From assembly GCA_030536575.1 (NCBI GenBank), contig JAUNPS010000026.1:361-64360 (forward strand): a stretch of DNA of 64,000 nucleotides, written 5' to 3'. Position numbers and translations under genes: made by a program. The notes under the pieces are model-generated. The model made no database searches, was not told the origin of the DNA, and was given only the letters and a program-made list of their open reading frames with translations. Numbering within the stretch: the stretch's first letter is position 1; every line of letters starts with the position of its first letter. This document shows positions 59,497-62,455 of the stretch, piece by piece. The stretch is from Eubacteriales bacterium. Lineage in GTDB: Bacteria > Bacillota > Clostridia > Lachnospirales > Lachnospiraceae.

Positions 59497-59949
59497 ATGG
59501 GAAAAATCATGGCTGTGAACATCAGCGAAAAAAAGGGAACCCAGAAAATCAACGTCCATTCCGCGAAGGTAATCGAAGATTTCGGCCTGGAACATGACGC
59601 GCACGCGGGTAAATGGCACCGCCAAGTAAGCCTGTTGTCTTACGAAAAAATTGAAGCCTTTAAGGCCAAGGGCGCGCCTGTGGAAGACGGCGCATTCGGC
59701 GAAAATCTGATCGTACAGGGCATTGACCTGCGGACATTGCCCGTAGGAACCAGGCTTCGCAGCGGCGACGTGGTGCTGGAAGTGACCCAGATCGGCAAAC
59801 AGTGCCACAGCGGATGCGAAATCTATAAAATCATGGGCGACTGCATTATGCCCCGCGAAGGAATTTTTACGCGGGTTCTCCACGGCGGCGTGATCTCCGA
59901 AGGCGACGAAATGAGGGTTCTGGATGGAAACGAAACTGAATCACTTTGA
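59497..59949 (+). CDS. MOSC domain protein (canonical Cys-containing)
   Basis: [42 protein letters not shown]; RBS GAGGAGG. Confidence 0.92.
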
Positions 59950-60418
59950 TGAAAAAGGAAATGCGGTCATGGTGGACGTCTCCGGTAAAGTCCCCACCGC
60001 GCGGACAGCGGTGGCGAAAGGGACAATCCACGTCAACGAAACGGTCATGCGGGCCATCCTGGAAGGCACCGTGAAAAAAGGCGACGTCCTTGGTGTGGCG
60101 CGGGTGGCAGGCATTATGGGGGTGAAACAGACCTCTTCGCTGGTTCCGATGTGCCATCCGCTGATGATCCAGAAATGCAGCGTGGACTTTGAGGTGGATG
60201 AACCGGGCTGTGCGGTTACGGCTGTCTGTACGGTGAAGACGGAAGGGCAGACGGGTGTGGAGATGGAAGCATTGACCGGAGTCAGCGTGGCATTGCTGAC
60301 CATTTACGATATGTGCAAGGCGCTGGATAAGTCGATGGAGATCGGCGGGATTCATCTGGCAGAAAAAATTGGGGGAAAAAGCGGGCACTATGTGAACCCG
60401 AAGGAAGCATATGATTGA
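59924..60418 (+). CDS. moaC: Cyclic pyranopterin monophosphate synthase MoaC
   Basis: [36 protein letters not shown]. Confidence 0.95.
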
Positions 60419-61385
60419 TCAATATGGAAGAACCATCGATTATCTTCGCATTTCCCTGACCGACCGCTGCAATCTGCGCTGTGTATACTGTATGCCCGAA
60501 GAGGGCATTCAGCAGATTTCGCATGCGGAGATTCTGACGTATGACGAGATCCGGCGCATTTGCCGCTGTATGACGGAGCTGGGGATTCGGAAGATTAAAT
60601 TGACAGGCGGAGAACCCCTCGTGCGCAAGGATTGCGCGCAGCTTGTGAGGACGCTGAAAGCCCTTCCGGGAATCGAGAAGGTAACGCTGACGACGAACGG
60701 AATTTTGCTGGGCGAGCAGCTTCCGGGGCTTGTGGAGGCCGGGGTCGACGCGATAAATATCAGTCTGGATACGCTGAATCCGGAGCTGTTTCAGAAGATT
60801 ACCAGGCGGGACTGTCTGGATCAGGTTTTGGAGGGATTGCAGGCGGCGCTTGGATGTCCGCAGCTTTCTGTGAAGCTGAACTGTGTTCCGGTGATAAAAG
60901 AAAAGGAAAATTTTGTGGCATTGGCGGGGCTTGCGAAGAATAATCCGCTGCATGTGCGGTTTATTGAGATGATGCCGATCGGGTATGGAAAGCAGTTTCC
61001 GTTTCAGGATGAGGAGTCGATCAAGACGGTTTTGGAAGAGGCTTATGGGCCGATGATGCCTACCGCGGAACGGTTTGGAAACGGCCCATGCCATTATTAT
61101 ACGTTGGAAGGATTTCAGGGGAAAATTGGATTTATCAGCGCATTGACCCATAAATTCTGCAGCCAGTGCAACCGTGTGCGGCTGACTGCAGAGGGGCATT
61201 TAAAGGGCTGTCTCCAATTCCAGGAGGGCGTCGACCTGCGGGAAATTCTGCGTAAGGGCGGCACGGACGCGGAGCTGACCGAGGCAATCCGCCGGATTAT
61301 CTGGGAGAAACCGGTCAGCCATCATTTTTACGAGACACAGACGGAGCAGGATGAGATGCGCGCCATGTCTCAGATTGGAGGATAA
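60411..61385 (+). CDS. moaA: GTP 3',8-cyclase MoaA
   Basis: [34 protein letters not shown]-terminal MSQIGG. Confidence 0.96.
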
Positions 61386-61386
61386 G

Positions 61387-61875
61387 ATGAGAGCAGCGAT
61401 TATTACGGCAAGTGATTCGGGATATGAGGGAAAGCGGGAGGATTTGAGCGGGCCGGTGATCCGGGAGATTCTGGAAGCGGGCGGTTATGAGGTGGTGCAT
61501 ACAAGGCTGCTGCCGGATGAGCGGAAGATGCTGGCGGAGGAGATGGCGCGGATTGCGGATGAGGGGATTGCGGAGCTGGTTGTGACCACGGGCGGCACCG
61601 GATTTTCGCCCAGGGACTGTACGCCGGAGGCGACGATGGATGTCTGTGAGCGGGCGGTGCCGGGGATTCCGGAGGCGATGCGGGCTTACAGTATGACGAT
61701 TACGCCGCGGGCAATGCTGAGCCGGGCGGCGGCGGGAATTCGGAAAAGCACGTTGATCGTGAATTTGCCGGGGAGTCCGAAGGCGGTGCGGGAGAGTCTG
61801 GAATATATTCTTCCGGCGTTGGATCATGGGCTGGAGATTTTGACGGGAAAAGCGGCGAACTGTGCGAGAAAGTAG
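61387..61875 (+). CDS. mogA: Molybdopterin adenylyltransferase (MogA/MoaB family)
   Basis: ITASDSG..DLSG, TTGGTGFSPRDCTPEA, NLPGSPKAV. Confidence 0.9.
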   Translation: MRAAIITASDSGYEGKREDLSGPVIREILEAGGYEVVHTRLLPDERKMLAEEMARIADEGIAELVVTTGGTGFSPRDCTPEATMDVCERAVPGIPEAMRAYSMTITPRAMLSRAAAGIRKSTLIVNLPGSPKAVRESLEYILPALDHGLEILTGKAANCARK

Positions 61876-61885
61876 TGGGAAGGCG

Positions 61886-62455
61886 ATGCGGAAGGTATCG
61901 ATGGTGATTCTGGCCGGAGGGGCCAGCAGCCGGATGGGGAGAGAGAAGGCGGATTTGCTTTTGGATGGGAAGACGTTTCTGGAGACGCAGATTGCGAAGG
62001 GGAGACGGCTTGGAATTGCGGATATTTTGGTTTCGGGATATCGGGGGGAGACATGCAGCGCGCGGGTTGTGATGGATCGAATTCCGAAGAAGGGGCCGCT
62101 TGGGGGGATGGAGGCGTGCTTCCGGGAGGCGAGGGAGGAATGGTGTCTGGTGCTGGGGGTGGATGTGCCGTTGGTGCCGGAGGAGGAATTGGAGAGGCTG
62201 ATCGCGTGTGCGCTTGAGAGCGGGGAGAGAGCGGTGATTCTGGAGCATGGGGGGAAGGAGGAGCCGTTGATTGGGGTTTATAAGAGGGAGTTAGCGGAGG
62301 AGATGGTGAGGGAGATTATGGAGGGGAAGGGGTCTGTGTTTGGGTTTTTGCGGAGGATTGGGTATGGGAGGTATCGGAGTGGGGGGAGGGAGGAGTGGTT
62401 TTGGAATGTGAATGAGCCGGGGAGTTATGAAAGAGTTAAGGGAATGGGAAAATAA
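61886..62455 (+). CDS. mobA: Molybdenum cofactor guanylyltransferase MobA
   Basis: ILAGGASSRMGREKA, GPLGG, VDVP, EPLIGVY, NVNEP. Confidence 0.9.
   Translation: MRKVSMVILAGGASSRMGREKADLLLDGKTFLETQIAKGRRLGIADILVSGYRGETCSARVVMDRIPKKGPLGGMEACFREAREEWCLVLGVDVPLVPEEELERLIACALESGERAVILEHGGKEEPLIGVYKRELAEEMVREIMEGKGSVFGFLRRIGYGRYRSGGREEWFWNVNEPGSYERVKGMGK

Follow-up and report, generated by a model that had tools for sequence, protein, structure and literature searches.

Molybdopterin (MPT) biosynthesis is usually presented as one universal pathway of four steps, the second of which belongs to MoaD/MoaE. The closest described exceptions are molybdenum cofactor (Moco) gene clusters that lack MoaE and contain a small MOSC protein. 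MoaE was absent from all acetogens examined, including Moorella thermoacetica (2016, PMC5039349), and the same gap was noted in Geobacter (2009, PMC2700814), where the MOSC gene was given the name mosC and described as a molybdenum sulfurase. A MOSC protein has already been proposed as the replacement in Dehalobacter (Tang et al. 2016, PMC4751268), and Peng et al. 2018 (PMC6147048) counted such MOSC proteins as molybdoenzymes. Both the gap and the hypothesis are therefore in print; no experimental test of the latter was found in the searchable literature. Here we analyze a 64,000-nt stretch of a gut Lachnospiraceae genome (GenBank GCA_030536575.1, contig JAUNPS010000026.1, positions 361 to 64,360 of the forward strand; hereafter, the window), in which a gene for a three-cysteine MOSC protein leads a Moco operon. 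New to this work are a quantitative complementary profile in two phyla, operon-position statistics, and the joint lack of MoaD, MoaE, and MoeB in this lineage.

Active formate dehydrogenases and further Mo/W enzymes are made without MoaD/MoaE by large groups of anaerobes, among them gut Lachnospiraceae, spirochaetes, sulfate reducers, organohalide respirers, and acetogens. Identification of the replacement would close a gap open since at least 2008–2009, reveal a new sulfur-insertion chemistry, and correct metagenome annotations that now score such organisms as "Moco pathway incomplete". The profiles described below point to one small, directly testable protein with three invariant cysteines.

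Results

Our comparative data suggest that the MOSC protein performs the MoaD/MoaE/MoeB step, the conversion of cyclic pyranopterin monophosphate (cPMP) to dithiolene-bearing MPT, or provides its indispensable core for sulfur delivery; we place the probability of this reading at roughly 0.5. Its starting point is the absence of the canonical genes. The source assembly (4.81 Mb in 100 contigs, 90.7% complete and 3.1% contaminated, with the window on contig C39) contains no match to MoaE (PF02391) even at E ≤ 10, and a hidden Markov model (HMM) of divergent MoaE, built from clostridial MoaE-like proteins, found nothing in the 62,882 open frames of at least 40 residues. The only genome-wide match to ThiS/MoaD (PF02597) was sub-threshold and corresponds to the TGS domain of RelA. 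The genome-wide search for MoeB returned one real ThiF-family gene, which adjoins trkA and encodes 240 residues; its product was rejected as MoeB, being TcdA-like by size. A second ThiF match is weak (21.5 bits). The original prediction had reported no MoaD, MoaE, or MoeB in the window and allowed that the genes could lie outside it. The first statement extends to the whole genome, and the second found no support there.

MoaE was likewise missing from all 40 relatives, which share this genome's genus, family, or order and are in many cases 97–100% complete, even as 18 of the 40 carry MoaC. As the same-genus relatives without MoaE include 99% complete genomes, with same-genus and same-family genomes at 99–100% behaving likewise, an assembly gap is not the cause of the absence. 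By these searches, this lineage is without MoaD, MoaE, and MoeB together. It nonetheless encodes client molybdoenzymes: fdhA, the only PF00384 gene in the genome, and one xanthine-dehydrogenase-family gene on contig C38, neither of which is interrupted by a stop codon. Four strong NifS/IscS-type genes, located on contigs other than that of the window, could serve as the sulfur source for the pathway; no class-V aminotransferase is encoded in the window's Moco cluster. On contig C38 (30107–37295), about 5 kb separate the xanthine-dehydrogenase-family gene from one for a NifS-like class-V aminotransferase; the two may together form a module in which the cofactor of the former enzyme is sulfurated or selenated.

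The product of 59497–59949 is a stand-alone MOSC domain of a distinct clade with three cysteines, to which Geobacter mosC also belongs. The Cys-rich motif noted originally (GKQCHSGC...GDC) is present and comprises C103, C107, and C116 (C-x3-C-x8-C). The protein also matches positions 163–307 of the MoaC/MOSC fusion model NF011069 (188.7 bits). It has no MoaE or MoaD homology, matching MOSC only, and its C-terminus (...ETESL) lacks Gly-Gly. The AlphaFold (AF2) model, with a predicted local distance difference test score of 94.1, is a MOSC β-barrel consisting of a bare single domain. Foldseek placed this model nearest to YuaD (1ORU, E 7e-8, template modeling (TM) score 0.77), 5YHH (TM 0.72), and mARC1 (TM 0.51). 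The nearest solved structures are thus Bacillus subtilis YuaD, YiiM, and, more distantly, mARC1, all ~20% identical; given that a Protein Data Bank (PDB) sequence search yielded marginal YiiM matches only, no structure of the three-cysteine clade has been solved. C103 aligns with the canonical Mo-binding cysteine of YiiM (the "PC" motif). The protein does not score as a reductase equivalog: it is a single 150-residue domain without an accessory module and reaches 20.1 bits on the 6-hydroxyaminopurine reductase model NF008577 against a cut-off of 294.

Conservation was assessed with 47 representatives; the library they come from was clustered at 50% identity and has 1,460 matching clusters at E ≤ 1e-10. 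All three cysteines are invariant, together with S10, K17, D34, H36, S45, E69, N70, and K101; R42, Q43, and H104 are at least 90% conserved, and the signature GDAHAG...WHRQVSLL is present alongside C-x3-C-x8-C. Close homologues (68–86% identical) occur very commonly as fusions to MogA/MoaB (~307–314 residues), and also as fusions to MoaC (~305 residues); a fusion to MoeA and a tandem MOSC were each seen once. A complex prediction with two MoaC chains and the MOSC protein scored 0.00 and was counted neither for nor against binding. The only other MOSC gene in the genome is the second one in the window, whose product is 35% identical to the first and keeps the third cysteine only, having lost K101, C103, H104, and C107; it may be a partner of the first or an FdhA-specific cofactor chaperone.

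The original prediction had proposed a phylogenetic profile, and in an even sample of 251 Clostridia genomes the clade proved confined to MoaC-positive members and largely complementary to MoaE. MoaC was found in 51 genomes, the three-cysteine MOSC in 47, and a weak MoaE-like match (30–40 bits) in 13. The MOSC gene was present in 47 of the 51 MoaC-positive genomes (92%) and in none of the 200 without MoaC. Within the MoaC-positive set, 35 genomes carry MOSC only, 12 both genes, one the MoaE-like gene only, and three neither. No ThiS-family gene is present in nine of the MoaC-positive genomes, among them this genome and its genus, and all nine have the MOSC gene. Among the three with neither, moaC stands alone between groEL and a hydrogenase in two, and the cluster of the third ends in degenerate moaC fragments; a search of these three genomes for a third solution gave no candidate.

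As a second test set, we used 121 genomes from the phylum of a Desulfovibrionaceae metagenome-assembled genome, 117 of them MoaC-positive. Of these, 44 carry MoaE alone, 59 MOSC alone, 12 both genes, and two neither. Where a strong MoaE adjoins a strong MoaD (17 genomes), MOSC is never found (0/17). The 12 genomes with both genes all have weaker MoaE-like matches (38–85 bits), and 11 of them have no TIGR01682 MoaD match, although absence of MoaD in this class is not secure, since the same model fails to detect MoaD in most genomes with a weak MoaE. To control for relatedness, branch-disjoint contrasts were drawn on a weakly resolved MoaC gene tree of 147 rows and evaluated by sign test. Across all branches, MoaE changed opposite to MOSC in 16 of 23 contrasts, in the same direction in one, and not at all in six (p = 0.0003); restricting the analysis to well-supported branches left seven contrasts, about four opposite and none the same (p = 0.125). 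The opposition of MoaE and MOSC is consistent in direction, and its strength depends on the weakly resolved gene tree.

A scan of named genomes returned more than 600 MOSC loci, 80 of which were kept for locus statistics. The nearest relatives are a Lachnospiraceae isolate (84%) and Anaerosacchariphilus hominis (85%), with further loci in Treponema, Desulfovibrionaceae, Eggerthellaceae, and Peptococcaceae. MoaE is absent from 21 of 22 named MOSC-bearing genomes of several phyla (Treponema, Desulfovibrionaceae, Peptococcaceae, Fervidicola, and others). In 77 of the 80 loci the MOSC gene lies within a Moco cluster; with moaA immediately upstream in 60 and moaB immediately downstream in 51, the typical order is moaC-moaA-MOSC-moaB, mirroring the sequence of pathway steps. 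The place that MOSC holds in these loci is that of moaD-moaE in the E. coli moaABCDE operon. The three-cysteine clade is a fixed component of Mo/W-cofactor operons in anaerobes without MPT synthase.

Two further groups of clostridial genes were noted during these scans. A highly conserved MoaE-like protein of ~135 residues (loci L004–L009; e.g., L007, 1435–1839) occurs in 13 of the 51 MoaC-positive Clostridia and in no MoaC-negative one, scores 30–40 bits on PF02391, and has its gene away from the Moco clusters. On visual inspection, the PxWK(K)E motif that ends E. coli MoaE is missing from this protein, and in L006 its gene follows a C_GCAxxG_C_C gene. Separately, three loci from other Clostridia, L013 (G131), L014 (G274), and L015 (G280), have ThiS/MoaD-family matches of 70–100 residues within about 5 kb of moaC and MOSC, beside open frames of ~230–260 and 590–650 residues. 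MoaD-like carriers may therefore coexist with the three-cysteine MOSC in genomes without canonical MoaE.

The Moco region spans ~16 kb of the window (Table 1), and every gene besides the MOSC gene under study has a Pfam family assignment. The genes named originally (MoaA, MoaC, MogA, two MoeA, MobA, MobB, ModABC, and FdhD) were all recovered, one MoeA showing MoCF_biosynth only.

Table 1. Features of the Moco region in window coordinates; genes were assigned from Pfam and NCBIfam scans
Feature	Position	Strand	Evidence and remarks
fdhA	46498-49215	+	PF00384 269 bits plus Fe-S domains; NuoG-like Fe-S N-terminus joined to molybdopterin oxidoreductase
Second MOSC	49188-49715	+	PF03473 36.5 bits; directly after fdhA, overlapping its end
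IS110-family transposase	49808-51118	-	DEDD_Tnp_IS110 and Transposase_20
moeA-like paralogue	51352-52407	+	PF00994 (MoCF_biosynth, MPT-binding) at residues 183-315 only; weak MoeA-type NCBIfam matches
moeA, complete, domains I-IV	52423-53628	+	MoeA_N, MoCF_biosynth, MoeA_C
mobB	53698-54243	+	PF03205 123 bits
MobA-like NTP transferase fused to ModE-type HTH	54244-55335	+	PF12804 and HTH_1; TIGR00637, NF045665
modA, modB, modC (molybdate ABC transporter)	55343-58253	+	SBP_bac_11, BPD_transp_1, ABC_tran
fdhD (sulfurtransferase for formate dehydrogenase)	58237-59280	-	PF02634 193 bits; divergent from the MOSC operon
Three-cysteine MOSC	59497-59949	+	PF03473 54.3 bits (cut-off 22.7; residues 81-185 of the long ORF); 150 aa
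moaC (cPMP synthase)	59924-60418	+	PF01967 191 bits
moaA (radical SAM GTP 3',8-cyclase)	60411-61385	+	Radical_SAM and Mob_synth_C
moaB/mogA (MPT adenylyltransferase type)	61351-61875	+	PF00994 117.9 bits; NF006932 144.6 bits
mobA (Moco guanylyltransferase)	61862-62455	+	PF12804; TIGR02665 87 bits
Terminator-like hairpin closing the MOSC operon	62588-62616	+	11-bp stem, then T-run

As originally described, the MOSC gene heads the operon, in the order MOSC, moaC, moaA, moaB/mogA, and mobA, and overlaps moaC at its 3' end, by 26 nt; the N-terminus of moaC agrees with the family consensus. The MOSC start is the ATG at 59497, preceded by GGAGG. A longer, GTG-initiated form (from 59359) was rejected because this ATG has the GGAGG and homologues begin there. 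Two open frames, a 147-residue one at 58231–58674 (+) and one at 59042–59428, were rejected as genes, each lacking a family match and lying antisense to fdhD. On the minus strand at 59380–59351, ~70 nt upstream of the fdhD start, is a perfect sigma-70 consensus (TTGACA-18-TATAAT), which falls in the divergent region common to fdhD and the MOSC operon. An Rfam scan of 44–64 kb of the window found no Moco riboswitch; its sole match, to a snoRNA model, was sub-threshold and was taken as chance.

Elsewhere in the region, the IS110-family transposase gene splits the cluster between the fdhA–second MOSC pair and the moeA-like gene, the N-terminal half of whose product contains no recognizable Pfam domain. 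The nucleotidyltransferase domain of the MobA-like fusion resembles the DVU_1551 family, and its gene sits between mobB and modA; the fusion may be a molybdate-responsive regulator-enzyme.

Discussion

The distribution matches non-orthologous displacement of MPT synthase, since nearly every cofactor-making genome has one system or the other, canonical moaD-moaE and MOSC are mutually exclusive in the sample tested, and MOSC adjoins, in operons and in fusions, the enzymes that make the substrate and use the product. The comparative data support a non-orthologous replacement of MPT synthase. A mechanism can be sketched in which MoaA and MoaC make cPMP and the pterin-binding MOSC barrel would bind it, which is plausible because MOSC domains are known binders of pterin cofactors. 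The cysteines of the C-x3-C-x8-C motif would then deliver two sulfurs from a NifS/IscS-type cysteine desulfurase, either as persulfides or via a cysteine-ligated Fe-S cluster and without a ubiquitin-like carrier, and the MPT so formed would be adenylated by MoaB/MogA. In its strongest form, the three-cysteine MOSC would be a self-sufficient MPT synthase needing no such carrier, i.e., a second, unrelated route to the dithiolene by persulfide or Fe-S chemistry. We hold this form more tentatively, at somewhat less than even odds; if true, such an enzyme would occur widely among anaerobes, across three or more phyla and in much of the gut Clostridia.

Several observations weigh against assigning the MPT synthase step to the MOSC protein. 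The MOSC proteins characterized so far either bind finished Moco, as do mARC, YcbX, and YiiM, or sulfurate it, as does ABA3/MOCOS, and to our knowledge none acts on cPMP. The searchable literature contains no biochemical or genetic data on the three-cysteine clade. MOSC and a MoaE-like gene coexist in 24 sampled genomes (12 per sample), one of which (G418) has MOSC, the MoaE-like gene, and moaC within 3 kb; conversely, five MoaC-positive genomes (three Clostridia and two of the second phylum) have neither. Related genomes are not independent, and only seven contrasts stand on well-supported branches (p = 0.125). The same profile would be expected if MOSC merely travelled with another, true enzyme. 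The suggestion made originally, that the MOSC protein may replace MPT synthase or its sulfur donor, is therefore partly supported: the genome-wide absence and the profile make it a well-grounded hypothesis, yet it stays comparative, has those 24 and five genomes to accommodate, and is not new.

Of the alternatives, the one that survives best, although we consider it rather unlikely, is that MOSC is an accessory factor that binds finished MPT or Moco as a carrier, insertase, or sulfurase, the enzyme converting cPMP to MPT being a different protein; it might, as an example, supply the sulfido ligand of FdhA or of the xanthine-dehydrogenase-family enzyme. This would agree with the activities of all characterized MOSC domains on finished Moco, with a fold nearest to YuaD, YiiM, and mARC, and with the alignment of C103 to the Moco-binding cysteine. 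The proximity of fdhD and fdhA, the second MOSC that follows fdhA, and the coexistence of MOSC with MoaE-like genes point the same way, and the fusions to MogA and MoeA are compatible with a protein that receives Moco. Fusion to MoaC, however, is not expected of a downstream carrier, and the window's cluster has no unassigned gene left to be the missing enzyme. An accessory role also leaves unexplained both the exclusion from canonical moaD-moaE and the near absence of MoaC-positive genomes lacking both genes.

A division of labor is less probable still: MOSC would supply sulfur only, in the role of MoaD/MoeB, and the catalytic site for cPMP would be contributed by a second protein of the operon, for instance MoaB or the MoeA-like paralogue. 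Geobacter sulfurreducens, reported to have moaE and mosC without moaD and moeB (PMC2700814), would be a precedent, and the genomes carrying MOSC with a MoaE-like gene, mostly without a TIGR01682 match in the second phylum, could be read in the same way, as could the unrecognized N-terminal half of the extra MoeA-like protein in the window. Against this, no MoaE-like partner exists in this genome or in the 59 MOSC-only genomes of the second phylum, and the MoaD absence on which the comparison leans is insecure for the reason given above.

We regard as a little more improbable again the view of MOSC as a client, i.e., a Moco-dependent reductase of N-hydroxylated compounds of the YiiM/YcbX/mARC type that is merely co-transcribed with the cofactor genes. 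The classification of such proteins as molybdoproteins by Peng et al. and the weak similarity to 6-hydroxyaminopurine reductase favor it, but that score is far below the cut-off, and the protein is a bare barrel without 3-alpha, MOSC_N, or ferredoxin modules. A client should coexist freely with MoaD/MoaE, whereas no canonical genome carries MOSC, and presence in 92% of MoaC-positive Clostridia together with a fixed operon position would be atypical. Finally, it is very improbable that canonical moaD/moaE/moeB are present but were missed, either in the unassembled ~9% of a genome in 100 contigs or through divergence beyond models on which even clostridial MoaE-like proteins score only 30–40 bits, given the matching absence in near-complete relatives, the lack of any match at E ≤ 10, and the empty result of the divergent-MoaE HMM.

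Comparison with Known Systems

The locus most closely resembles the MoaE-less clusters of Dehalobacter (Dehre_2363/2365), Geobacter (GSU3145, Gmet_0302), and acetogens, which likewise hold a small MOSC gene inside a moa/moe/mob cluster. Both this genome and Dehalobacter have two MOSC paralogues, with identities of ~30–37% (reported as ~30% in Dehalobacter; PMC4751268). The present genome differs in the extent of its losses: Geobacter species each keep part of MoaD/MoaE/MoeB and many Clostridia keep a ThiS/MoaD-like gene, whereas none of these is found here. The arrangement differs as well, in that MOSC follows moaA in the other clusters and here leads the operon and overlaps moaC. In the MoaC/MOSC fusions (NF011069, PRK14499) and the MOSC-MogA fusions, the MOSC half belongs to the same clade that is encoded here by a separate, overlapping gene; these fusions confirm that its function is tied to the reactions immediately before and after MPT synthesis.

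With YiiM, YcbX, mARC, and YuaD (PDB 1ORU), the protein shares the MOSC β-barrel and a cysteine at the same position, at ~20% identity. It is distinguished from them by the lack of accessory domains, two extra invariant cysteines, the GDAHAG/WHRQ motif, and a strict link to moaC. The C-terminal domain of ABA3/MOCOS, also of MOSC type, is thought to pass persulfide sulfur from a NifS-like enzyme to the pterin cofactor. The protein described here has no fused NifS-like domain and would act on cPMP, not on the terminal sulfido ligand of finished Moco.

The comparison with MPT synthase itself (MoaD2–MoaE2 with MoeB; E. coli moaABCDE/moeB) is one of role rather than descent. The two systems would act at the same step, share a moaA/moaC neighborhood ahead of the MPT-adenylating enzyme, and are distributed in complementary fashion, yet they show no kinship in sequence or fold, the MOSC β-barrel standing against the α/β hammerhead of MoaE and the ubiquitin-like MoaD. 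Because the MOSC system has neither a Gly-Gly thiocarboxylate carrier nor an E1-like activating enzyme, its sulfur chemistry would differ from that of MPT synthase.

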